Part shown: positions 20,369 to 31,626 of the stretch, piece by piece
Position numbering within the stretch: position 1 is the first letter of the stretch
Layout of the letters: every line of letters begins with the position of its first letter
Source: Deltaproteobacteria bacterium
GTDB taxonomy: Bacteria > JACQOV01
Length of the DNA: 34,471 bases
NCBI GenBank assembly: GCA_016202395.1
Contig: JACQOV010000098.1
Coordinates: 1-34,471 of the forward strand
Direction: 5' to 3'
Made by a program: the position numbers and the translations under genes
Notes under the pieces: model-generated
What the model saw: the letters and a program-made list of their open reading frames with translations, nothing else
Database searches by the model: none
Told to the model about the DNA's origin: nothing

Positions 20369-20412
20369 TTTGTAACAGATCTGATACAAATTTGTAACAG
20401 ATCTGTTACAAA
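20369..20412. promoter_or_regulatory. Tandem 22-bp palindromes, probable enhancer-binding protein sites
   Basis: TTTGTAACAGATCTGATACAAA immediately followed by the perfect palindrome TTTGTAACAGATCTGTTACAAA. Confidence 0.75.
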
Positions 20413-20526
20413 ACTGATCGGCAAAGCCCGGACACTGGATCGATTTTTCCCTACCGATGGCATGAAAAAACTCGAGAGACTCTTCCTTTTTCTCTATCCC
20501 TATGCTACATCTGCTCCACACGTTTT

Positions 20527-20847
20527 ATGATCCCTGCATTGCCCGTATTAGATGAAATCCGACTGGCCTCCCAAAGAGGTCGCACTCGATGGCGAGCTCG
20601 CGCCCAACAACACATGATGGAAAAGAAAATCTGGAGAGAAGACGTCGCACAAATCATCCGCACCGGAAAAATCGTTGAAAACCAGGAGGCGAAACAAACC
20701 TCCGCCCCCTATTTCATCCACGGAAGGCTCGGCGGAGACGATTTCCATGTGGTTCTCCTCTGGGATCCTCATGAAAAAAACATCTCCATCCTGGCGATCT
20801 CGCAACCGTCCCTCTCTAAAACGCCCAGGAGATCTAAGGAGGTCTAA
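20527..20847 (+). CDS. DUF4258-like protein, putative toxin of a type II TA pair
   Basis: RAQQHMMEKKIWREDV..IIRTGKIVE, FIHGR, FHVV pattern, directly upstream of a YgiT zinc finger gene. Confidence 0.7.
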   Translation: MIPALPVLDEIRLASQRGRTRWRARAQQHMMEKKIWREDVAQIIRTGKIVENQEAKQTSAPYFIHGRLGGDDFHVVLLWDPHEKNISILAISQPSLSKTPRRSKEV

Positions 20848-20849
20848 AG

Positions 20850-21083
20850 ATGACATCGCTCCCTAAATGCTCCTTATGCGGCGGCGCCATGAAAGCAGGG
20901 CACACCCCTTTTACCATCGATTTCGAAAAAGGGGTGGTGGTTATCCGCCATGTCCCCGCTCAAGTTTGCAACACGTGTGGGGAAAGCTGGATTGAGGATG
21001 TCACCTCGGCACAACTGGAAATTAGGGTCAAAGCCGCCCAATCCGGCCAACGACAATTCGAAGTCATCGACATGGCAATTTAG
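20850..21083 (+). CDS. YgiT-type (MqsA-like) zinc finger protein
   Basis: KCSLCGG...VIRHVPAQVCNTCGE. SD AAGGAGG. No HTH domain. Confidence 0.88.
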   Translation: MTSLPKCSLCGGAMKAGHTPFTIDFEKGVVVIRHVPAQVCNTCGESWIEDVTSAQLEIRVKAAQSGQRQFEVIDMAI

Positions 21084-21089
21084 GCCCCC

Positions 21090-21118
21090 TTGATTAATTG
21101 GGCAGCCAATGGTAGTAT
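21090..21118 (+). promoter_or_regulatory. Putative sigma70 promoter of the copper efflux operon
   Basis: TTGATT-N17-TAGTAT with extended -10 TG. The spacer contains ATTGG-GCAG-CCAAT. Confidence 0.6.
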
Positions 21119-21130
21119 AGAGGGTAATTT

Positions 21131-21481
21131 ATGAAGCGCTTATTGAAAATGGCAGGGGTAGCCTTTCTGGTCCTAGGGATTCTAGCCCCCACGATCTCAA
21201 TGGCCTGCCCTGTCAGCCCAAAGCACCTCTGCTGTGGGAAAGTGACGCATCTCAAGATGGAGCCAGCGCAGCCCGACTGTGCCGACATGACCCTCTGTGG
21301 TGTCGCTGTTCAAGACAAGAATCCTATTGTGAACACCCATTTCGAGATCCCTTTTATGCCGCAATTCACTGCAGCGTTAAACCATTCTTCTCAAGATTTC
21401 TCTCAAGTTTTTGAAATAATCCAGCCTCTCGGTCCCCAAGGACCACCGATTTATCTCGCAAATAGCGCCTTAATCATTTAA
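21131..21481 (+). CDS. Exported Cys-rich leader protein with a Pro-rich C-terminus (DUF2946/CutF-like architecture)
   Basis: Sec signal peptide ending SMA, five Cys (C, CC, C-x5-C), His/Met residues, C-terminal PLGPQGPPIYLANSALII. Confidence 0.72.
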   Translation: MKRLLKMAGVAFLVLGILAPTISMACPVSPKHLCCGKVTHLKMEPAQPDCADMTLCGVAVQDKNPIVNTHFEIPFMPQFTAALNHSSQDFSQVFEIIQPLGPQGPPIYLANSALII

Positions 21482-21482
21482 A

Positions 21483-21537
21483 ATAAAACACCTCAAATCT
21501 CCGTTGACTGGCTCTTCGCTTTAAGGAGGTGTTTTAT
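21483..21537 (+). promoter_or_regulatory. Hairpin sequestering the SD and start codon of cusC
   Basis: ATAAAACACCTC (21483-21494) is the exact reverse complement of GAGGTGTTTTAT (21526-21537). Confidence 0.78.
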
Positions 21538-22816
21538 GTCTTTAAGTCCATTTTGGAGAGGAGCGGTCCTCGGGCTATGTTGGATGACCCTTTGGAGTCA
21601 GAAGCCCGCGGCCGCCGATGAAAAAACCGAGATCGAAAAAGTAATTGACGAAGCCATCGCGCAAAACGCGGAGCTTGCGGCCGAGCGCGAAACGATTCAG
21701 GCGCTCCAAGCACGCGTTCCGCAGGCCGGGGCGCTCGAAGACCCTCGCCTGGGTTTTGGCGTTACCAATCTCCCTGTCAAAAACCCTGCCTTCAACACCG
21801 AAGAAATGACCGGGAAGGAGATCTCTATCAATCAAATGGTCCCTTTCCCCGGGAAACTCTCGCTCATGAAAAAGGCGGAAAAAGAGGCTCTAGCCTCCGC
21901 CAAAGCGATGCTTGAAGACAAAACCAATGAGATCCGCTACGAGGTGGAAGAGACCTACTTTGAGCTCTATCGAGTTGACAAAGCGATTGAGGTCCTCCAA
22001 AAGAACCGGGGTCTTCTCAATGCGATGGCCGAGGTCACCCAAGCCCGCTACGCTGTGGGGGATGAGAGCGGGGCTGACGTTTTCCGGGCCCAAACGATGG
22101 CGACCGAACTAGAGAGTGAGCTTCTGGCGATGGAGCAAGAACGGCAATCGCTGGGCGCTCGGCTCAATCAGCTGCTCAATCGCCCCATCGACACCCCCTT
22201 TACCGCCGCCTACGATTTTTCGCGCACCCCTCTCCCCGCAAAACCTCAAACGGACCAGATCGAGACAGCGCCACGACTTGAAGCCATGGGGCAAGAAGTC
22301 GAAAAGGCAAAAACCGAGCTGCGCGTGGCAAAAAGGGAGTACTGGCCGGATTTCGATTTCGGATTGAGTTACATGCAACGGGATGAGATTAAAAACGATC
22401 CTATGTCGGGATCAGATCTTTTTGCCGGCTCGGTCATGATCAATATTCCCCTTTGGGCCCATTGGCGACAGAGTCGAAAAGTGGAGGAGATGGCGGCAGA
22501 AAAGAGATCGATGGAGCATCACTATCATCACATTCGGAATGAACTCCTCTACGAGGTGGAAGAGACCTTCCGAACTCTGGAACGCCAAGATCGGCAGCTC
22601 TCCCTTTTTGAGCAGTCGCTCCTGCCACAAACTCAAGCGACCTATGAATCGGCCTATTTTTCCTACCAAACCGAACAGGCCGATTTTTTCTCAACGATTG
22701 AAGCGCTCAAGACTCTGCTGGAAACAGAGCTTGCTTTCTACGAACTCGAGTCTAATTACCAAATCACCCACGCCCGTTTAAACTGGATCGTGGGAATGAA
22801 GGAGGAACAACCATGA
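21536..22816 (+). CDS. cusC: TolC-family outer membrane factor of a heavy-metal RND system (CusC-like)
   Basis: Signal peptide, QAGALEDPRL, QMVPFPGKL, PDFDFGLSY, INIPLW, coiled-coil segments. First gene of the CBA cluster. Confidence 0.85.
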   Translation: MSLSPFWRGAVLGLCWMTLWSQKPAAADEKTEIEKVIDEAIAQNAELAAERETIQALQARVPQAGALEDPRLGFGVTNLPVKNPAFNTEEMTGKEISINQMVPFPGKLSLMKKAEKEALASAKAMLEDKTNEIRYEVEETYFELYRVDKAIEVLQKNRGLLNAMAEVTQARYAVGDESGADVFRAQTMATELESELLAMEQERQSLGARLNQLLNRPIDTPFTAAYDFSRTPLPAKPQTDQIETAPRLEAMGQEVEKAKTELRVAKREYWPDFDFGLSYMQRDEIKNDPMSGSDLFAGSVMINIPLWAHWRQSRKVEEMAAEKRSMEHHYHHIRNELLYEVEETFRTLERQDRQLSLFEQSLLPQTQATYESAYFSYQTEQADFFSTIEALKTLLETELAFYELESNYQITHARLNWIVGMKEEQP

Positions 22817-23922
22817 AGAAATATCTTTTACTGGCATCCGGGGCTTTATTGGCCGCAGCTCTCCTGATCATGAGAGGAGTACACGCGAATCCCGAAGAAA
22901 ATCCCCATGAGGGGCATGAAGGGATGATGCACGACCACGAGGGGATGATGCATGAGAATCAACATGAAACCCCTCCTGAAACGCCTAAAAAAGATGAGAA
23001 GGAACAAAAGCTCTACACCTGCCCGATGCATCCGCAGATTCGAAAAACAGAGCCGGGACAATGCCCCATCTGCGGCATGGATCTTATCCCGGTCAAAGAA
23101 CAGGAAGATCTCCCACAATCGAGTGTCCCCGGGTTTGCAACGATCCGCGTTACTCCTGAACAGCAGTGGCTGATCGGGGTAAAAACTGCGACCGTAGAGA
23201 AAAGAGAGCTCCTCCGAAAACTCCGAACCTACGGAACCGTTGCTTCCGACCGAGAGCTTTATGTCACACAGAAGGAGTATCTTGCTGCCGTTCGCTCCAA
23301 AGCCGACACTCTCATACGAGCGACTCATCAAAAGCTTCTTCTTTTGGGAATGACAGAATCTCAGATCAAAGCGCTTCGCAAAGAAGGAGAGGTTGATTCC
23401 TCTCTCTACCTCACCATTGGAACCGGGAAGGCGTGGATCTACTCGGCGATCTACGAATCCGAACGCCCTCTCATCCGTGAAGAATTACCTATCACGATCG
23501 AGACAGCCGGCGACCCGAAAAGAGGCTTCACAGGAAAAATTGACGCCATCACCCCTCTCGTCAATCCTGAAAATCGGACGTTGACTGCCCGAACGGAGGT
23601 CCAAGACCCCGAAGGGATCCTTCAGCCTGGGATGTTTCTCGATGTCTACATCGATATCCCTTTGGGAGAAAGCCTCACCATCCCTAAAAGCGCCGTCCTC
23701 AAAACGGGACAGCGGAACATCGTGATGGTCCAAAAAGATCCAGGGATCTTCGAACCCAGAGAAGTAACGCTCGGAGGGGAATCGGATGAGATGTTGCAGG
23801 TTTTATCGGGTCTGAATGAAGGAGAGATTGTGGTCACAAGCGCTAATTTCCTCCTCGATTCCGAAAGTCAAATCCGAGGAGCGTTTTCTTCTGGAGCTGG
23901 AGGGCATCAACATGGTCAATAA
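22813..23922 (+). CDS. cusB: CusB-type periplasmic adaptor
   Basis: His/Met-rich N-terminus, YTCPMHP...CPICGMDL metal-binding domain, LQPGMF, SANFLLDSESQ. Confidence 0.9.
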   Translation: MKKYLLLASGALLAAALLIMRGVHANPEENPHEGHEGMMHDHEGMMHENQHETPPETPKKDEKEQKLYTCPMHPQIRKTEPGQCPICGMDLIPVKEQEDLPQSSVPGFATIRVTPEQQWLIGVKTATVEKRELLRKLRTYGTVASDRELYVTQKEYLAAVRSKADTLIRATHQKLLLLGMTESQIKALRKEGEVDSSLYLTIGTGKAWIYSAIYESERPLIREELPITIETAGDPKRGFTGKIDAITPLVNPENRTLTARTEVQDPEGILQPGMFLDVYIDIPLGESLTIPKSAVLKTGQRNIVMVQKDPGIFEPREVTLGGESDEMLQVLSGLNEGEIVVTSANFLLDSESQIRGAFSSGAGGHQHGQ

Positions 23923-26900
23923 GATCATCGAGTTCTGTTCTCGGAATCGATTTTTCACATTTCTCTTCACAGGAATGGCTATTTTGGGGAGCCTCTATGC
24001 CATCCGAAACATTCCGCTTGACGCAATCCCCGATCTTTCGGACGTGCAGGTGATTATCTTTACCGAGTGGCCCGGCCGCTCCCCCGATATTTTAGAAGAT
24101 CAGGTGACTTACCCGATTGTCTCTGCCATGATCGCGGCCCCCAAAGTGAAAGTGGTGCGCGGTTATTCCTTCTTTGGCCTCTCCTTTGTCTACACCATTT
24201 TCGAGGACGGAACCGATATCTATTGGGCTCGCAGTCGCACACTCGAGCTTTTGAGTAAAATTCGAGGGAATCTCCCTGAAGGGGTGAATCCCGCTTTGGG
24301 CCCCGATGCCACCGGTGTTGGCTGGGTTTTCGAGTATGCTCTGGTCGATGAAACCGGCCAAAACTCTCTTGCCGAGCTGCGAAGTTTTCAAGATTGGTAT
24401 CTCCGCTATTGGCTGCAATCGGTCCCCGGGGTTGCCGAAGTGGCCTCCCTCGGAGGATTTACAAAACAGTATCAGGTGGAGATTGATCCCAATCGACTAC
24501 TCGCCTACAACATCCCACTCCATGAGGTGATCGAGGCGATTCAATCCTCGAACAATGATGTCGGAGGACGAGTGCTCGAGATGACTGGAACAGAGTACAT
24601 GATCCGAGGGCGTGGCTACATCCGTTCCCTAAAAGACATCGAAGAGATCGCCGTCCTATCGGACATACGGGGAAACCCCATCCGAGTGAAGGACCTCGCC
24701 CATGTCCAGTTCGGCTCTGACATGCGCCGTGGAGCCGCCGAATTGAATGGAATGGGAGAGGTGGTGGGAGGCGTTGTCGTGATGCGTTTTGGTGAGAACG
24801 CCTACGACGTGATCGAACGGGTGAAAACCAAACTCAAAGAGGTGGAACCGTCCTTCCCTAAAGGGGTGAAACTGGTGACGACCTACGACCGCTCCGGCCT
24901 GATTGAGCGCTCGATCCACACCCTGCAAAAGAAACTTTTAGAAGAGATGCTGGTGGTCGCGCTCGTGATTCTTCTCTTCCTCTGGCACTTCCGAAGCTCT
25001 CTCGTGCCGATCCTCTCTCTCCCGATTGCCGTGCTCCTCTCATTTATTCCGATGTACTACCTCGGCGTGACCTCCAATATCATGTCGCTGGGTGGGATTG
25101 CGATTGCCATTGGAGCGATGGTCGACGCCGCCATCATTCTGGTTGAAAACGCGCACAAACGGCTGGAGGAATGGAAAGAGCATGGAGAGAAGGAGCCTCT
25201 TTTCGATGTGCTACTCCACGCTTGCCAAGAGGTAGGACGGCCGATCTTTTTCTCGTTGCTCGTCATTGCCGTCTCCTTCATGCCGATCTTTGCTCTCACA
25301 GGACAAGAAGGGAGACTCTTTAAACCACTCGCTTTCACAAAAAACTTTAGCATCTTCTTTGCGGCGCTTCTTGCGATCACGCTCGCCCCCGCTCTCATTC
25401 AGATCCTGCTGCGCCCTGGCAAAGAGAGAGAGTTGAGGCCTCGATGGCTCTCCAAAATCTACAACTTCGTCGTCGCTGGGAAAATCCACAAAGAGGAGAA
25501 CCATCCGGTTAGCAAATCCCTTTTCCGGATCTACGCACCAATCTTGAATTGGATCTTAGAGAATAGAAAAACGGTGATTGTTATTATGGCTTTAATGATC
25601 CTCACGATTTTCCCTCTCTACTCTCGTTTGGGTTCTGAGTTTATGCCTCCATTAAACGAAGGGGATCTTCTCTACATGCCAACGACTCTCCCTGGGATCT
25701 CGGTGGAAGAAGCAAAAAAATGGCTTCAGATCCAAGACAAGCTGATCAAAACATTCCCCGAGGTGAACACCGTTTTTGGAAAGATCGGACAGGCCCGAAC
25801 CGCAACCGACCCCGCCCCTTTTGAGATGGTGGAGACGGTCGTGCAGCTCCAACCGATGCGCCAATGGCCCAAAATCGATCACGAACGTTGGTACTCTTCG
25901 TGGATGCCCGATCGGCTCAAATTCCCTTTTCGATGGATTTGGCCCGAACAAAAACGGCGCAGTTGGGAAGAGCTTGTTCAGGCGTTGAATCAAACGCTGC
26001 AACTCCCCGGGACCTCTAATGCGTGGGTCATGCCGATCAAAACGCGAATCGACATGCTCACGACAGGAATCCGAACGCCGGTCGGAATTAAAATCTTTGG
26101 GCCCGATCTCGCAACAATCCAAAAGATTGGAGAGCATATCGAGGGGGTTCTCCCTCAAGTGGAGGGGACTCGATCGGTTTTTTCAGAACGAGTAACCGGC
26201 GGATACTACCTCGATTTCAAACTTCGGCGGGAGTCGATCGCTCGTTATGGTTTAACGATAGGAGATGCCGAAGAGATCATCGAAACAGCCATCGGTGGAA
26301 TGGAGATTGCCACAACCATTGAAGGGAGAGAACGCTATACAGTGAATGTCCGCTATCCCCGAGAGCTTCGCAGTGACTTAAATCAACTCCGCCGCGTCCT
26401 CGTTCCTCTCCCCTCTGGCGCACAGATCCCGATTGGAGAGATTGCGGATCTTGAAATCACCATGGGCCCCCCTTCCCTTCGAGATGAAAATGGGATGCTC
26501 ACCGGCTGGGTTTTTATTGATATCTTTGAAGACCGGGACATCGGAGGCTATGTGGAAGAGGCCAAAGCGCTCATCTCTAGCGAAGTCGAGCTTTCTGCAG
26601 GTTATTATCTCTCTTGGAGCGGACAGTTTGAATACATGGAGCGGGCCAAACAACGGCTCCTCGTAGTCGTGCCGGTAACACTCCTTCTCATCGCCCTCCT
26701 TCTCTACATGAACACCGGGAGTGGGATCAAAACCGGAATCGTTTTACTCGCCGTGCCGTTTTCGCTCATCGGAGCCTTTGGGATCCTTTGGATCCTCGGC
26801 TACAACGTGAGTGTCGCCGTTTGGGTCGGCATCATTGCGCTCGCGGGAGTCGATGCGGAAACCGGTGTCGTTATGCTTCTGTATCTCGATCTCGCCTATG

Positions 26901-27190
26901 AGCAATGGGTCAAGAAGGGAAAGATGCAGAACTGGGAAGACCTGAAGGAAGCGATCCATCATGGAGCGGTCCAACGGCTTCGCCCCAAACTCATGACCGT
27001 AGGGGCCCTATTTATGGGGCTATTGCCAATTATGTGGGCCCCCATCCATGAATCGGGAGCCGATATGATGAAACGCATTGCGGCCCCGATGGTCGGCGGT
27101 ATATTGACTTCCTTCATTGGAGAATTATTGGTTTATCCTGCAATTTTTGCAATTTGGAAAGGACGCACATTAAAAAGAAACGTTCCATAA
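23912..27190 (+). CDS. cusA: CusA/SilA Cu(I)/Ag(I) RND efflux pump
   Basis: LDAIPDLSDVQVI, LGPDATGVGW, GAMVDAAI, GSEFMPPLNEGDLLYMP, TDPAPFEMVET, RIDML, RLRPKLMT. Start ATG23912 with SD GGAGG. Confidence 0.96.
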   Translation: MVNKIIEFCSRNRFFTFLFTGMAILGSLYAIRNIPLDAIPDLSDVQVIIFTEWPGRSPDILEDQVTYPIVSAMIAAPKVKVVRGYSFFGLSFVYTIFEDGTDIYWARSRTLELLSKIRGNLPEGVNPALGPDATGVGWVFEYALVDETGQNSLAELRSFQDWYLRYWLQSVPGVAEVASLGGFTKQYQVEIDPNRLLAYNIPLHEVIEAIQSSNNDVGGRVLEMTGTEYMIRGRGYIRSLKDIEEIAVLSDIRGNPIRVKDLAHVQFGSDMRRGAAELNGMGEVVGGVVVMRFGENAYDVIERVKTKLKEVEPSFPKGVKLVTTYDRSGLIERSIHTLQKKLLEEMLVVALVILLFLWHFRSSLVPILSLPIAVLLSFIPMYYLGVTSNIMSLGGIAIAIGAMVDAAIILVENAHKRLEEWKEHGEKEPLFDVLLHACQEVGRPIFFSLLVIAVSFMPIFALTGQEGRLFKPLAFTKNFSIFFAALLAITLAPALIQILLRPGKERELRPRWLSKIYNFVVAGKIHKEENHPVSKSLFRIYAPILNWILENRKTVIVIMALMILTIFPLYSRLGSEFMPPLNEGDLLYMPTTLPGISVEEAKKWLQIQDKLIKTFPEVNTVFGKIGQARTATDPAPFEMVETVVQLQPMRQWPKIDHERWYSSWMPDRLKFPFRWIWPEQKRRSWEELVQALNQTLQLPGTSNAWVMPIKTRIDMLTTGIRTPVGIKIFGPDLATIQKIGEHIEGVLPQVEGTRSVFSERVTGGYYLDFKLRRESIARYGLTIGDAEEIIETAIGGMEIATTIEGRERYTVNVRYPRELRSDLNQLRRVLVPLPSGAQIPIGEIADLEITMGPPSLRDENGMLTGWVFIDIFEDRDIGGYVEEAKALISSEVELSAGYYLSWSGQFEYMERAKQRLLVVVPVTLLLIALLLYMNTGSGIKTGIVLLAVPFSLIGAFGILWILGYNVSVAVWVGIIALAGVDAETGVVMLLYLDLAYEQWVKKGKMQNWEDLKEAIHHGAVQRLRPKLMTVGALFMGLLPIMWAPIHESGADMMKRIAAPMVGGILTSFIGELLVYPAIFAIWKGRTLKRNVP

Positions 27191-27201
27191 GGAGGAGATC
27201 C

Positions 27202-27624
27202 ATGAGAAAACTTTTGAGTCTAATGGTAGGACTGTGTCTTTTGGGTGTTACAACCGCTTCATCACAAGACGCTCGCGCTCAGGCGAAGATTTATATCGAC
27301 TATTATCACTCGATCCAACTCACGCCAGAGCAGGAAAAAATCCAGGAAGCGGCTCTATCCTCCATGCCAGCCCCTTGTTGCAGCAATTCCACCGCTGCAA
27401 CTTGTTGCTGCCCGTGCAACCTTGCCAAAAGTGTGTGGGGTTTGTCGGCTTTCCTGATTGCCAAACGCAATTACAATGTCGCGCAAGTAAAAAAGGCAGT
27501 AACAGAATGGCAGGAGCAAGCCAATCCGGAAGGCTACACCGGAGATTCTTGCTACAACGGCCGGTGCAATCACTCTTTTGATGAAAATGGATGCGGTGGC
27601 ATGAATGAAGAAAAGATTTTTTAG
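27202..27624 (+). CDS. Exported Cys-rich hypothetical protein
   Basis: SD AAGGAGG, signal peptide, nine Cys in the mature part: PCC, CCCPC, C-x4-C, GCGG. Confidence 0.8.
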   Translation: MRKLLSLMVGLCLLGVTTASSQDARAQAKIYIDYYHSIQLTPEQEKIQEAALSSMPAPCCSNSTAATCCCPCNLAKSVWGLSAFLIAKRNYNVAQVKKAVTEWQEQANPEGYTGDSCYNGRCNHSFDENGCGGMNEEKIF

Positions 27625-27634
27625 AGGAGGAGAT

Positions 27635-28195
27635 ATGAAAATAAATCCGAGATTTATTTTAGTGGGTATGGTCGTTATCCTTTCTGGAACCCCGTGGATC
27701 TGGGCTCATGAGAAACATCACCACGAGGAAGAAACATCTCCAAAAACAGAGGCGCCTATTCCTCAAGAGGCGCTGAACGCAATTAATCATGATTATCTGG
27801 AGAATGTGCGGCCAATCTTTAAGCAGAAATGTTTCGATTGCCACTCTCAATATACCCACTATCCCTGGTATTACGCCATTCCAGGCCTCCAACAACTTTT
27901 AGATCATGATATGGAGGAAGGGAAAAAGCATCTCGACCTGTCCAACGATTTCCCATTTAAAGGTCATGAAGACACAACCCCTCTCGAAGATTTGGAAGAG
28001 ATTGAAAAAGTGATTCAAAAAAATGAGATGCCGATGTTCCGTTACAAACTCCTCCATTGGAATGCGTGGTGGTCCGATGAAGAAAAGGAAACCGTTTTAA
28101 AATGGCTTCAAGAAAGTCAACAAAAAATCCACCCATGGGCTGGAAATATGAAAAAGGACGAAAATGATACCAGCGAGTCAATCTTGGATCGTTAA
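27635..28195 (+). CDS. Monoheme c-type (Haem_bd-like) periplasmic protein with a His-rich N-terminus
   Basis: CFDCHS heme motif, YPWYYAIP, distal EMP Met, YKLLHW, HEKHHHEEE after the signal peptide. SD GAGGAGG. Confidence 0.85.
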   Translation: MKINPRFILVGMVVILSGTPWIWAHEKHHHEEETSPKTEAPIPQEALNAINHDYLENVRPIFKQKCFDCHSQYTHYPWYYAIPGLQQLLDHDMEEGKKHLDLSNDFPFKGHEDTTPLEDLEEIEKVIQKNEMPMFRYKLLHWNAWWSDEEKETVLKWLQESQQKIHPWAGNMKKDENDTSESILDR

Positions 28196-28302: not shown

Positions 28303-28914
28303 ATGAAGAGAGGCCAAAACAACTTGATTAAAAAGGCTTTTTTAGCTAGACTTTGCCAAAGCCGGGGTCGATACACACAGGAAGAGGTCGCTTCTGCGGT
28401 GGGGATATCTCAATCCGTCCTCTCCAAGATGGAGCGAGGTTACCGGGAACTGACAGCCATGGAACTCAAAAAACTGGCCGATTTTTATCAGAAACCGCTC
28501 TCCTTCTTTTTCGGAGATAAAGAACCCTCGGTGCAAGAAAAAACAGATACAAAAAATCTTCAATATCCTGTTCCAGTCACTTTGGACATTCTCCAAAAGA
28601 TGGCTCATGAGATCGCGACCACTTTTAATCCTGAAAAGATTATCCTTTTTGGATCACGTGCCTGGGGAAAGCCTCATCGAGATAGCGATGTCGATCTGTT
28701 GGTGATGACAAAGGCGTTGAGTCCTTTAAGGCCCGCTCAGAGGCGACGGATTGTGAAAGCAATCTGTCAGCCGCCACTCGTGCCGGTCGATATTCTGGTA
28801 AATACCCCCGAGGAAGTCCATCAAAGAATAGAGAACGGCGATCTATTCTTCAACAAAATCTTAACGGAAGGAAAGGTCCTCTATGAACTCCCCCATCGTG
28901 AACGAATGGGTTAA
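28303..28914 (+). CDS. XRE-HTH / minimal nucleotidyltransferase (MNT) fusion, putative antitoxin
   Basis: TQEEVASAVGISQSVLSKMERG helix-turn-helix, then ILFGSRAWGKPHRDSDVDLLV (GS-x10-DxD). Confidence 0.9.
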   Translation: MKRGQNNLIKKAFLARLCQSRGRYTQEEVASAVGISQSVLSKMERGYRELTAMELKKLADFYQKPLSFFFGDKEPSVQEKTDTKNLQYPVPVTLDILQKMAHEIATTFNPEKIILFGSRAWGKPHRDSDVDLLVMTKALSPLRPAQRRRIVKAICQPPLVPVDILVNTPEEVHQRIENGDLFFNKILTEGKVLYELPHRERMG

Positions 28915-29269
28915 AAAGGCTGAGGAGGATCTCAAGGCTTGCCGTATCCTTTCACAAAAAGAGTTAGCAGAGGTCACCGATGTAGTCTGCTTCCATGCGC
29001 AACAATGCGCGGAAAAGTATCTTAAAGCCTTCTTGAATTCTAAAGAGCAAGAAGCGCCGAAGATTCATTCACTGAAAATTTTGATTGAATTGATCGAACC
29101 TCTCGATCCAGAGTTTCGAACTCTCTTTGAAGATGCCAGCCAACTTGAGGAATATGCTGTTGAATTTCGGTATCCCGGAGAAACGGCCATCGAGGAGGAA
29201 GCCCGTGACGCTCTACGAAGAATGGTTATCATCCGAGATTTTATACGAAAAAAACTAGGATTCAAATAG
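28883..29269 (+). CDS. HEPN domain protein
   Basis: [35 protein letters not shown]. Overlaps the MNT gene. Confidence 0.9.
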
Positions 29270-29277
29270 GAGATGCC

Positions 29278-31626
29278 GTGGCGACGGAAATAACCTCAAA
29301 CACAGCCAAAGATCCCATCTGTGGAATGGAAGTTTCACCAGAGAAGGCCAAAGGGAAGTTCGAGTACGAGGGAAAGATTTACTATTTTTGTAGTCCGAAC
29401 TGCCTAAAGAAATTTCAGGAAGATCCGAGAAAATTCGCTAATCCCCCTCACCCTAGCCCTCTCCCCAAAGGGGAGAGGGAAAGTTCGGGAACCTCTTCAA
29501 AAAATGAAAGGAGGACCTACACCTGCCCGATGCATCCGGAGGTCGCCTCCAATAAACCCGGAAGCTGCCCGAAATGTGGGATGGCGTTGGAGCCCAAAAC
29601 GATCCTCTTGGAAGAAGAGAATCCGGAGCTTCAATCCATGTCGCGCCGATTTTGGATAAGCCTGGTCCTAACGGTCCCGGTCTTTTTGATTGCGATGTCG
29701 GAGATGATTCCAGGCAAACCGATCCAGAAGATCTTAACACCCAAAACTCTCGGCTGGATTCAATTCGCGCTCTCCACTCCGGTAGTCCTTTGGGGGGCTT
29801 GGCCCTTCTTTGTTCGGGGCTGGCAATCGATCGTCAATCGCAGTCTTAATATGTTTACACTCATCAGCATCGGTGTTTTTGTCGCCTACGCCTATAGTTT
29901 AATGGCCATTTTATTTCCATCGATTTTTCCAGAATCGTTCCGTCATCACGGACACGTGGCGGTCTATTTCGAGGCTGCAGCCGTTATCGTAACGTTGGTT
30001 TTATTGGGTCAGGTGTTAGAGCTTCGAGCCCGATCCCAAACAGGGGCGGCGATCCGAGCGCTTCTGGGACTCGCTCCAAAGATGGCGCGACGCATCGAAA
30101 AAGATGGGACTGAGAAAGATGTCCCTCTGGATCAAGTTCAAGTCGGAGACAAGCTCCGAGTTCGCCCCGGAGAAAAAGTCCCTGTGGATGGAACGGTGAT
30201 CGAAGGGATCAGCTCCATCGACGAATCGATGATCACGGGAGAGCCGATTCCGGTCGAAAAAAGCCCCGGCGATAAAGTCGTCGGAGCCACCCTCAATGAA
30301 ACCGGAACATTGATAATCCAAGCGCAAAAAATCGGAGCCGACACTCTTCTTTCACAAATCGTCAAAATGGTGGCGGAGGCGCAAAGAAGCCGCGCCCCCA
30401 TCCAAAAATTAGCCGATGTGGTGGCAGGTTACTTTGTTCCCGCGGTCGTTCTCGTAGCCGTTTTCAGTTTCATCGCATGGACACTTTGGGGACCTGAGCC
30501 TCGAATGGCTTATGCCTTAATTAATGCTGTCGCTGTTTTAATCATTGCCTGCCCTTGCGCCTTGGGTCTGGCAACACCAATGTCGATCAGGGTTGCAACC
30601 GGGAAAGGGGCTACACTGGGAGTTCTTTTCAAAAACGCCGAGGCCATAGAAACTCTGAGAAAAATGGACACCCTCGTGGTCGATAAAACGGGAACTCTCA
30701 CCGTAGGAAAACCAAAACTGGTTTCTGTCAAACCTCTGCGAGATGCAGTGGAACAGGATCTGCTTCGTTACGCCGCAACATTAGAGAAAGGGAGCGAACA
30801 CCCCCTGGCTACGGCTATCGTAGACGGGGCTTTGGAACGAAGACTCTCTCTGGGGAAAGTCGAAAATTTCAAATCGATGACAGGGAAAGGGGTGGAAGGG
30901 ATCGTCGAAGGGCGTTCGATCGCCCTGGGGAACGCCGCGCTCCTGAAAGATTTGAAGATCGACCTTCGAGGAATCCACGAAGAGGTTGAACGGCTTCGAT
31001 CGGAGGGACAAACCGTGATGTTCGTGGCCATCGATGGGAAACTTTCCGGTCTCCTCAGTGTTGCCGACCCCATTAAAGAAACCACTCTTCAAGCGCTTGA
31101 ATCTCTCCATCGAGAAGGGATTCAAGTGGTGATGCTCACGGGGGATAACAAAACCACCGCGCAGGCCGTAGCGAATCGACTGGGAATCGATGAAGTGATT
31201 CCCGAGGTTCTTCCCCATCAAAAAGCGGAAAAGATTAAAGAGCTGCAAAAGCACGGAAAATTCGTGGCGATGGCGGGCGATGGAATTAACGACGCCCCAG
31301 CGCTGGCTCAAGCCGATGTTGGAATTGCGATGGGAACGGGAACCGATGTGGCCATTCAAAGCGCCGGCGTCACGTTGCTCAAAGGAGACCTTCGCGGCAT
31401 CGTTCGAGCACGACGCCTGAGCGAGGCCACAATGCGAAATATTCGACTCAATCTTTTCTGGGCTTTCTTCTACAATGCCGTGGGCGTGCCAGTGGCCGCC
31501 GGAATTCTTTACCCCTTCTTTGGAATTCTTTTAAGCCCCATGATCGCCGCCGCCGCCATGAGCTTGAGTTCCGTTTCCGTCCTCTGGAACTCCCTGCGCC
31601 TACGAAAGCTAACCCTTTCAGCCTAA
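29278..31626 (+). CDS. copA: Cu(I)-translocating P1B-type ATPase with YHS and heavy-metal-binding domains
   Basis: DPICGM...YFCS (YHS), YTCPMHP, TGEP, CPCALG, DKTGT, SEHP, GDGIND, YN, MSLSS. Confidence 0.95.
29443..29481 (+). repeat. BoxC-like palindromic repeat inside copA
   Basis: CCCCCTCACCCTAG followed by the hairpin CCCTCTCCCC-AAA-GGGGAGAGGG (29457-29479). Translated as [13 protein letters not shown]. Confidence 0.8.

Follow-up and report, generated by a model that had tools for sequence, protein, structure and literature searches.

Organization of the leader ORF and the cus operon

The window analyzed here is a stretch of 34,471 nucleotides (nt) from a Deltaproteobacteria bacterium (contig JACQOV010000098.1, assembly GCA_016202395.1), and it carried an operon whose first gene was a small open reading frame (ORF) for a Cys-rich leader peptide, followed by genes resembling cusC, cusB, and cusA (Table 1). 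This leader ORF, and an RNA helix that runs from its stop codon to the start of cusC, are considered below as a putative translational gate of the efflux genes. CusCBA systems export copper and silver, and their textbook control is exerted by the two-component system CusRS. The pump encoded in the window reached 1045 bits against Escherichia coli CusA and 490 bits against ZneA, and it retained the Met residues within LLYMP, EMVET, and RIDML, which we take to be the three-Met site of CusA. The cusB-like adaptor scored 114.6 bits with the CusB model NF007303, which is under the cut-off. Judging from a pump that is closer to CusA than to ZneA, together with the adjacent genes for an outer-membrane efflux protein (OEP) and an HlyD_D23/HMBD adaptor, the operon was predicted to encode a CusCBA-type copper/silver system of the heavy-metal efflux resistance-nodulation-division (HME-RND) family. 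Pfam scans of the 32 ORFs of the window detected no two-component (CusRS), MerR, or CsoR family regulator, in agreement with the initial annotation, which was made from the letters of the DNA and had listed no CusRS, CueR, or CsoR gene in the window. Across the genome, the assembly of which is 89% complete, CsoR was not found and no CusS-type kinase exceeded its cut-off.

Table 1. Positions, in the window, of the leader ORF, the helix, and the efflux genes
Feature	Position	Strand	Description
Shine-Dalgarno (SD)-like AGAGGG of leader ORF	21119..21124	+	6 nt 5' of leader ATG; read from the sequence
Leader ORF	21131..21481	+	116 amino acids (aa) plus UAA; first gene of the operon
Signal-peptide-like N-terminus	21131..21205	+	Residues 1-25: MKRLLK, hydrophobic core, SMA before C26
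Cys-rich stretch	21206..21298	+	C26-x7-C34C35-x-K-x-THL-x8-C50-x5-C56; from translation and 4-sequence alignment
QGPP	21437..21448	+	G104-P105-P106; no Arg at -3
Hydrophobic tail and stop	21449..21481	+	IYLANSALII + UAA (21479-21481); conserved in the alignment
Helix, 5' strand	21476..21494	+	7 nt (last sense codon, stop, next A) + 12-nt arm with anti-SD CACCUC
Helix, loop	21495..21525	+	31 nt with a small internal hairpin; no -35/-10 pair by eye
Helix, 3' strand	21526..21547	+	GAGGUGUUUUAU (SD core to AU of AUG), bulge GUC, UUUAAGU (cusC codons 2-4)
cusC-like outer-membrane efflux protein	21536..22816	+	PF02321 OEP, 4.7e-39
cusB-like adaptor	22813..23922	+	PF16576, PF19335; His/Met-rich N-terminus, HMBD domain
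cusA-type heavy-metal RND pump (CusA/CzcA family)	23909..27190	+	TIGR00914, 1120.6 bits

The N-terminus of the leader combined MKRLLK, a hydrophobic stretch of 16 residues, and SMA directly before the first Cys, and it resembled a Sec signal by inspection of the translation only. The five Cys residues were C26, C34, C35, C50, and C56, and the Pro pair was located 10 codons upstream of the stop codon. The initial annotation had pointed to this Sec-like N-terminus, the five Cys, QGPP, and the tail IYLANSALII before the stop, and both its description and its coordinates were correct. As far as the predicted translation goes, the ORF fits the rule-based CutF-like class defined in PMC9973294: its length is within the limit of <150 aa, P105 and P106 are the 12th and 11th residues counted from the C-terminus and thus obey the Pro-position rule, and the 54 nt between the leader stop and the cusC ATG agree with the spacing rule, the signal peptide having been judged by inspection. 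The Atlas structure model of the peptide was essentially unstructured (predicted local distance difference test, pLDDT, 0.48). As a structural neighbor in the Atlas, DUF2946 was discarded at a template modeling (TM) score of 0.28, which is under any bar; the nearest clusters were unnamed small hypothetical proteins.

A helix from the leader stop codon to the cusC start

The arm ATAAAACACCTC (21483-21494), which begins one base past the leader stop, was the exact reverse complement of GAGGTGTTTTAT (21526-21537), and the perfect 12-bp helix announced in the initial annotation was therefore found as such. Its 3' arm masks GAGGUG of the cusC SD AAGGAGGUG (21523-31) and the AU of the AUG at 21536. 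The predicted fold of 91 nt had a minimum free energy (MFE) of -22.2 kcal/mol (z -2.91), and 1 of 200 shuffles was equally good. In a fold of 201 nt (z -1.96) the helix was retained and gained 7 pairs, in which 21476-21482 (AUU-UAA-A) pair with 21541-21547 past a 3-nt bulge, so that the helix comprised 19 pairs in total with the leader stop codon inside it.

The 12-bp stem was compared with other gene starts of the genome, for which 1657 genes were crudely called, 1633 of them with scorable starts, and each start was scored by the longest perfect stem that joins -90..-17 to -16..+3. The cusC stem ranked first among these crude starts, followed by one stem of 11 bp and four of 10 bp. All five runners-up (C55, C76, C95, C58, and C24) were GC-rich palindromic intergenic hairpins, four of which shared a common palindromic core motif and form a repeat family, and C24 contained a different palindrome; the five starts were probably mis-called. 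Such GC-rich intergenic palindromes of this genome can thus imitate SD-masking stems in a naive scan. The cusC helix is not a repeat element, because each of its 12-mer arms occurs once in the 1.9-Mb assembly. Within 20400-21900, an Rfam search returned no family, a promoter scan found no sigma-70 promoter at 9 of 12 consensus positions, and no terminator-like site or U-tract was present on the + strand.

The window DNA was also present in groundwater metagenomes, with five DNA runs from two studies and no RNA run listed, and a phylum-level genome search returned no genome besides the window's own. The groundwater contigs yielded no usable variation at the helix: contig X5 record 23, from the second study, was identical to the window over 21428-21585 (158 nt), and contig X4 record 16, from the same organism, had 6 differences within 20836-21588.

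Relatives of the leader peptide and the link to HYC_CC_PP

A word-based search of 5.8 billion proteins retrieved the leader itself and two relatives, P0002 (81% identity) and P0003 (77%), and HMMER over 1.84 billion representatives added P0006 (119 aa, 28% identity, E 1e-5), which matched from end to end. Of the 5 HMMER matches at E<=0.001, three were long multi-stretch proteins (445-2110 aa); these were dropped as spurious repeats, and P0005 alone among them was inspected. A profile search recovered the same four sequences. None of the 24 pattern matches among genome contigs, or of the 244 among metagenome contigs, was a relative of the leader. In the alignment of the four sequences, all five Cys were invariant, together with H32, K37, T39, H40, L41, P74, and F75, and so were G104-P105-P106, I107-Y108-L109, N111, and I116. 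P0006 has HGPP followed by an insert of 2 aa before IYL, and the distance of I-Y-L-x-N-x4-I to the stop is unchanged; the tail is therefore spaced from the stop codon rather than from the Pro pair.

Searches with hidden Markov models (HMMs) of DUF2946 (PF11162, gathering cut-off 23.7 bits) and HYC_CC_PP (NF047658, cut-off 28 bits) gave no match at E<=1 for either the leader or P0006. At the same threshold the leader matched neither the CzcI family NF045614 nor any other Pfam or NCBIfam family. Profile-profile alignment with hhalign scored the leader family at 70.6% (E 3.9e-5) against 4 HYC_CC_PP members and at 95.0% (E 3.5e-8) against 26 members, over 104 columns that reach both C-termini, and the leader is therefore regarded as a remote HYC_CC_PP relative beyond the reach of the family HMM. 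Two of the motifs that give this family its name, CC (C34-C35) and PP, are present in the leader; H-Y-C is absent and SMAC stands in its place.

A survey of CusA homologues covered 80 loci, in 49 of which cusC, cusB, and cusA were adjacent. Directly upstream of cusC, 12 of the 49 had a small Cys-containing ORF with prolines near the C-terminus, as judged by eye; 12 others had a CusF-like, YHS-type, or other gene, and nothing convincing was located there in the remaining 25. Among the first 12, four leaders (L030, L036, L065, and L013) ended in SPP-x5-8-(I)Y(L/I)-x4-5-(L/F/R)I-stop and four (L019, L033, L072, and L066) had similar hydrophobic tails, one (L082) was weakly DUF2946-like, and L005, L069, and L077 were of other types. 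Leaders with a PP-plus-tail ending thus precede cusC homologues in several phyla, and the motif PP-x-Y-L-x5-(L/I)-I-stop, the conservation of which the initial annotation had named as a check, recurs across them. With NF047658, the leaders of L013 (38.4 bits) and L036 (32.7 bits) passed the cut-off and those of L065 and L030 fell just under it; in the phylum of L036, 51 of 201 sampled genomes contained HYC_CC_PP above the cut-off. In members of this family, (S/A)PP is followed by a further 10-16 residues that finish in hydrophobic (F/L)(L/R)I or YIFY(A/S), and in Bacteroidota the genes next in line encode an RND pump, a TonB-receptor plug, an HMA protein, or a beta-propeller protein. One surveyed locus, from Gemmatimonadota, has no leader peptide and carries a response-regulator-like ORF (MKTIMLVEDD...; L006:2255-2605) 250 nt upstream of cusC; closely related CusA pumps seem to use different control schemes.

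Stop-to-start pairing across the wider family

Pairing was scored as the best RNA duplex between the stop region of the leader (last 4 codons to +22) and the start region of the next gene (-18 to +9), and cognate pairs were compared with shuffles and with all non-cognate pairs; the test covered loci of the wider family rather than those of P0002, P0003, and P0006. In 13 leader loci, window included, which had been chosen by eye, cognate pairs scored -12.2 kcal/mol vs. -9.3 kcal/mol for non-cognate pairs (Mann-Whitney p 0.0047), and 4 of the 13 (the window, L030, L019, and L072) reached p<=0.05 against shuffles, which keep mononucleotide composition only. In 12 control loci with other upstream genes, the corresponding values were -10.6 and -10.9 kcal/mol (p 0.73). 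A further 19 HYC_CC_PP loci of Bacteroidota, with gaps of 40-135 nt, gave -9.4 vs. -5.9 kcal/mol (p 7e-7), and 11 of them reached shuffle p<=0.05. When 25 representatives at <=50% identity were taken, the values were -10.36 and -6.42 kcal/mol, none of 5000 permutations was as low, and 12 loci reached shuffle p<=0.05; without the window, the 24 that remained gave -10.08 and -6.37 kcal/mol, again with 0 of 5000 permutations as low and with 10 at shuffle p<=0.05. The downstream starts were assigned by simple rules throughout.

In the nine strongest loci listed, the 5' arm starts at or within the stop codon and has its partner at -18..-5 of the next gene; these arms differ in sequence from one locus to another. 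L019 and L072 were closest to the arrangement of the window: in L019 the final codons and the stop pair with the spacer and the AUG, and in L072 an anti-SD 5 nt past the stop pairs with AGAGGU. The AT-rich Ignavibacteria loci L036, L065, and L013 showed no significant pairing. Locus-specific pairing between stop and start supports the architecture across HYC_CC_PP-type leaders, in about half of the loci.

A proposed translational gate of cusC

A translating ribosome was modeled as a footprint of unpaired mRNA that spans -12 to +15 about the P-site, and the cost of opening the ribosome-binding site (RBS) of cusC, 21521-21550, was calculated. This cost was 16.7 kcal/mol in free mRNA and changed little with Pro105 (16.3 kcal/mol), Pro106 (15.9 kcal/mol), or Asn111 (16.0 kcal/mol) in the P-site; it was 12.2 kcal/mol with Leu114 and 9.1 kcal/mol with Ile116 in the P-site and the UAA in the A-site. 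The model thus confirms that the mask would be loosened only by ribosomes at the very end of the leader, and it bears out the earlier claim that the Pro pair lies too far upstream for a ribosome there to melt the hairpin. From the anatomy of the helix it follows that initiation at cusC would be coupled to translation of the leader and sensitive to the dwell of ribosomes at its stop.

On balance, we lean toward a CutF-like translational gate of cusC that is opened by ribosomes at the leader stop, and we infer that the gate responds to metal. In naked mRNA, the cusC initiation site would be masked by the 12+7-bp helix, and a ribosome that has arrived at the end of the leader, on its last codons or its stop, would unwind the 5' strand and free the cusC start site, so that cusC translation would hinge on leader translation and on the dwell time of ribosomes at the leader end. 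Translation of cusBA would probably follow that of cusC through the overlapping starts. By analogy with CutF, the Cys motif of a nascent, co-translationally exported chain may bind Cu(I)/Ag(I) in the periplasm, and the metal-bound chain may then alter ribosome progress or release via the conserved GPP and the hydrophobic tail. It is from that analogy that we borrow export of the leader, binding of metal to its Cys motif, and any pause; the direction of regulation is presumed as well.

The place at which the leader would act can be narrowed further. A tail anchored to the stop codon and a helix starting at that stop suggest that the leader acts at, or close to, the termination step and not at the prolines. 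It is possible, though rather unlikely, that HYC_CC_PP-type leaders, this one included, constitute a class distinct from CutF and CruR, in which a TnaC-like inhibition of release keeps the ribosome on or beside the stop codon, the hold being tuned by metal bound to the exported Cys motif. The hydrophobic tail would then occupy the peptidyl-transferase end of the tunnel, with PP 10-16 residues deeper near the constriction, and the termination dwell would directly set translation of the next gene because the stop codon is inside the masking helix.

The initial annotation had placed the decisive event at QGPP, where ribosomes held short of the helix would represent the OFF state, and read-through to the stop or slow termination the ON state. 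This agrees with the modeled energies, in which a ribosome at PP leaves the opening cost essentially as it was and one at the stop lowers it by ~7.6 kcal/mol, with the invariance of GPP in 4/4 relatives, and with a C56-P105 distance of 49 aa, near the 45 aa discussed for CutF (PMC9973294). We nevertheless consider a stall at QGPP quite improbable: Arg is absent before GPP, AGPP and AAPP served as non-arresting controls in PMC12992588, and the PPP of CutF by itself is described as a weak staller.

Plain translational coupling is a simpler explanation, in which the 116-aa product works in the periplasm as an accessory or metal-binding protein, in a CzcI- or CusF-like role, and the helix links its synthesis to that of CusC, with no sensing by the nascent chain. 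The modeled helix opens at termination regardless of events at PP, the Cys pattern is kept down to 28% identity, CusF-like or YHS-type periplasmic proteins occupy the same position in other cus operons, and QGPP is, by the data of PMC12992588, not a strong arrest motif. However, the Atlas model of the peptide is essentially unstructured, conservation is centered on the Cys motif and the stop-anchored PP-plus-tail, which a folded chaperone does not require, stop-to-start pairing is absent from the control loci that have CusF-like genes upstream, and the leader has no CzcI match. We therefore regard coupling alone as doubtful.

Several observations weigh against the gate that we favor. Even when the 5' strand is covered, part of the SD still pairs, in a weak alternative hairpin that AAGGA forms with cusC codons 2-4, and because of this hairpin a cost of 9.1 kcal/mol remains with the ribosome at the stop. 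For the same reason, the probability of the SD being unpaired drops from 0.32 to 0.16 in that state; it is thus a poor measure, and opening energies were used instead. When the 30-nt initiation region of each gene start was forced open in its -90..+40 context, the MFE opening cost of the cusC RBS was 8.7 kcal/mol and ranked 1043 among 1633 (median 10.3 kcal/mol), so the helix is specific and well placed but not unusually stable. Significant pairing was absent in 13 of the 25 representative loci, the start codons of which were crudely chosen, and the leader peptide itself was missed at E<=1 by the HMMs of DUF2946 and HYC_CC_PP. The closest CusA relatives, L004, L006, and L007 (70%), have no such leader. 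In addition, PP is 10 codons from the stop, unlike the PPPRL-stop of CutF (PMC8456105), so that the proximity of the stall site in CutF is not reproduced, and QGPP is without the Arg of the EF-P-resistant RAPP/RGPP arrest (PMC12992588). Finally, one MerR/CueR-like gene is present on contig C93 (108 bits vs. a cut-off of 147 bits), and transcriptional control of the cus operon may thus also operate.

The unexceptional opening cost would also agree with another role of the helix in RNA, as a processing site or in mRNA stability or attenuation, or with a fortuitous helix next to an unrelated ORF. We consider this very unlikely, since the stem is the longest of its kind in the genome and single-copy, is placed exactly from the stop codon to the SD/AUG, and is accompanied by no U-tract, terminator-like site, or Rfam match in the region searched, and other loci of the family show this architecture with arms of different sequence.

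Neighboring genes and a second leader-like ORF

A weak promoter-like sequence, TTGATT-N17-TAGTAT, was noted by eye within 21090-21118 (8 of 12 positions, below the scan threshold). Its spacer contains the dyad ATTGG-N4-CCAAT (21097-21110), which is unique in the genome as an exact 14-mer and could be a candidate operator for a regulator. Directly upstream of the leader (20527-21083, +) were two ORFs, one of 106 aa with DUF4258 and one of 77 aa with a weakly MqsA-like zinc ribbon, which are probably a toxin-antitoxin pair. Because only 47 nt separate these ORFs from the leader ATG, read-through transcription into the cus operon is possible.

Directly past cusA, an ORF of 156 aa (140 aa from a later start; 27154-27624, +) encodes an exported-looking protein with the dense Cys cluster PCC...CCCPC, for which no Pfam or NCBIfam family was found. 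It overlaps the gene of a Haem_bd (PF14376) protein (27605-28195, +), and the operon may extend over these two genes. Farther downstream (29278-31623, +), a likely copper exporter is encoded, a P-type ATPase whose N-terminal part contains YHS and HMBD domains. An HTH/nucleotidyltransferase and HEPN pair (28303-29266) is located between it and the cus genes; together they form a small metal-resistance island.

Outside the window, a second leader-like ORF of this genome was located on contig C82 (L002:1393-1710, +). It encodes 105 aa with HCAVCQ and ends in RAPPSSC-stop, and at 19.5 bits (cut-off 23.7) it was the sole match of a genome-wide DUF2946 search. The CCUCCU that encodes its Pro-Pro is complementary to AGGAGG, the SD of the next gene, with a fold z of only -0.97. 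That gene has a weak BBP2 porin-like match and is followed by a ZnuA-type binding protein. The C82 ORF looks like a CruR-type arrest leader of a metal-uptake operon.

Previous reports and implications

The initial annotation knew of no description of such control for cusCBA, a statement that has to be narrowed. Genes for CusC/CzcC/SilC-type OEPs were reported as the most frequent downstream neighbors of CutF-like genes, from bioinformatics only (Ozturk et al., 2023; PMC9973294), and the general idea for RND operons is therefore already in print in that form. According to the same source, 40% (normalized) of CutF-like genes are in Bacteroidota and most of the intergenic spacers are <100 nt; its main text contains no statement on conserved stem-loops for these clusters, which File S1 and Figs S5-S7 may show. 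A literature search returned no paper under the name HYC_CC_PP and, among the papers listed, no title or abstract opening on leader-peptide translational control of cusCBA; on CutF, DUF2946, and CruR it returned only the papers cited here. The device of leader plus helix is real and well placed, belongs to a different sequence family, and has a geometry unlike that of CutF and CruR.

If the proposed gate operates, it would provide a fast translational response of the pump to periplasmic metal without a dedicated regulator, which would suit a groundwater organism whose genome is small (1.9 Mb). For HYC_CC_PP, a catalogued and unstudied family, it makes a testable prediction, namely that the leader stop is embedded in a helix masking the next start. 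Should these leaders constitute a distinct class, heavy-metal RND pumps and other metal genes would, in many phyla, be translated according to the dwell at termination. The stop-anchored geometry differs from that of CutF and CruR, the only two prototypes studied.

Comparison with known systems

In Rhodobacter capsulatus, copper bound to the exported nascent chain of CutF prolongs stalling, and an SD-masking stem-loop is melted (PMC9973294; 10.1101/2025.02.05.636593). The CutF C-terminus is P109EPEGPPPRL118 (PMC8456105), and the stalled ribosome reaches the stem-loop because PPP lies two residues before the stop. Both CutF (118 aa) and the leader (116 aa) are small Cys-motif peptides encoded by the first gene of a copper operon, CutF being Sec-exported and the leader Sec-like by inspection; both have a PP motif near the C-terminus and a short intergenic stem-loop masking the SD of the following gene. 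The Cys-to-Pro spacing is 45 aa in CutF and about 49 aa (C56 to P105) here. In contrast to CutF, the leader has a conserved hydrophobic tail of 10 residues past PP and a helix that starts from the stop codon, its Cys pattern is C-x7-CC...C-x5-C instead of CxxxC, it has no detectable sequence homology (no DUF2946 match), and its target is an RND efflux operon rather than a multicopper oxidase.

CruR (Bp2923) of Bordetella pertussis is a DUF2946 protein with RAPP, in which arrest was mapped at Pro-Pro; RAPP/RGPP arrest needs Arg, and AAPP and AGPP were the non-arresting controls (PMC12992588). It has a spacer of 162 nt, Rho-dependent control, and independence of the signal sequence (PMC9973294). 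The leader resembles CruR, which exerts post-transcriptional control of a metal-transport gene, as an upstream ORF with a Cys motif and a C-terminal PP, and differs from it in QGPP, the 54-nt spacer, and the SD-masking helix. The part of the initial annotation that applied the logic of CutF and CruR to this operon therefore holds for SD masking as in cutF and for the rule-based CutF-like features, whereas no DUF2946 HMM match was obtained and QGPP is without Arg. CzcI of Cupriavidus metallidurans, the gene of which immediately precedes czcCBA, is a small exported protein that has been suggested to take part in metal-dependent regulation (PMC9973294); as described there it has no C-terminal proline motif, and the leader does not match NF045614.

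HYC_CC_PP members share with the leader a signal-peptide-like N-terminus, the CC pair, PP at 10-16 residues from the end, and a tail of the form (L/F)(L/I)I-stop; they are likewise encoded upstream of metal genes, with a stop region that pairs with the start region of the next gene. The leader differs from them in having no H-Y-C after the signal peptide, in its other Cys spacing, and in giving no match to the family HMM at E<=1.

In SecM-secA, a nascent chain inside the ribosome unmasks an SD held in a helix, and in TnaC-tnaA the leader arrests at its own stop codon. The effector proposed here is an extracytoplasmic metal, the arrest is putative, and the sequences are not similar; nevertheless, in the reading that we favor, the leader would resemble both systems in that a nascent chain acts in the ribosome to expose downstream signals.

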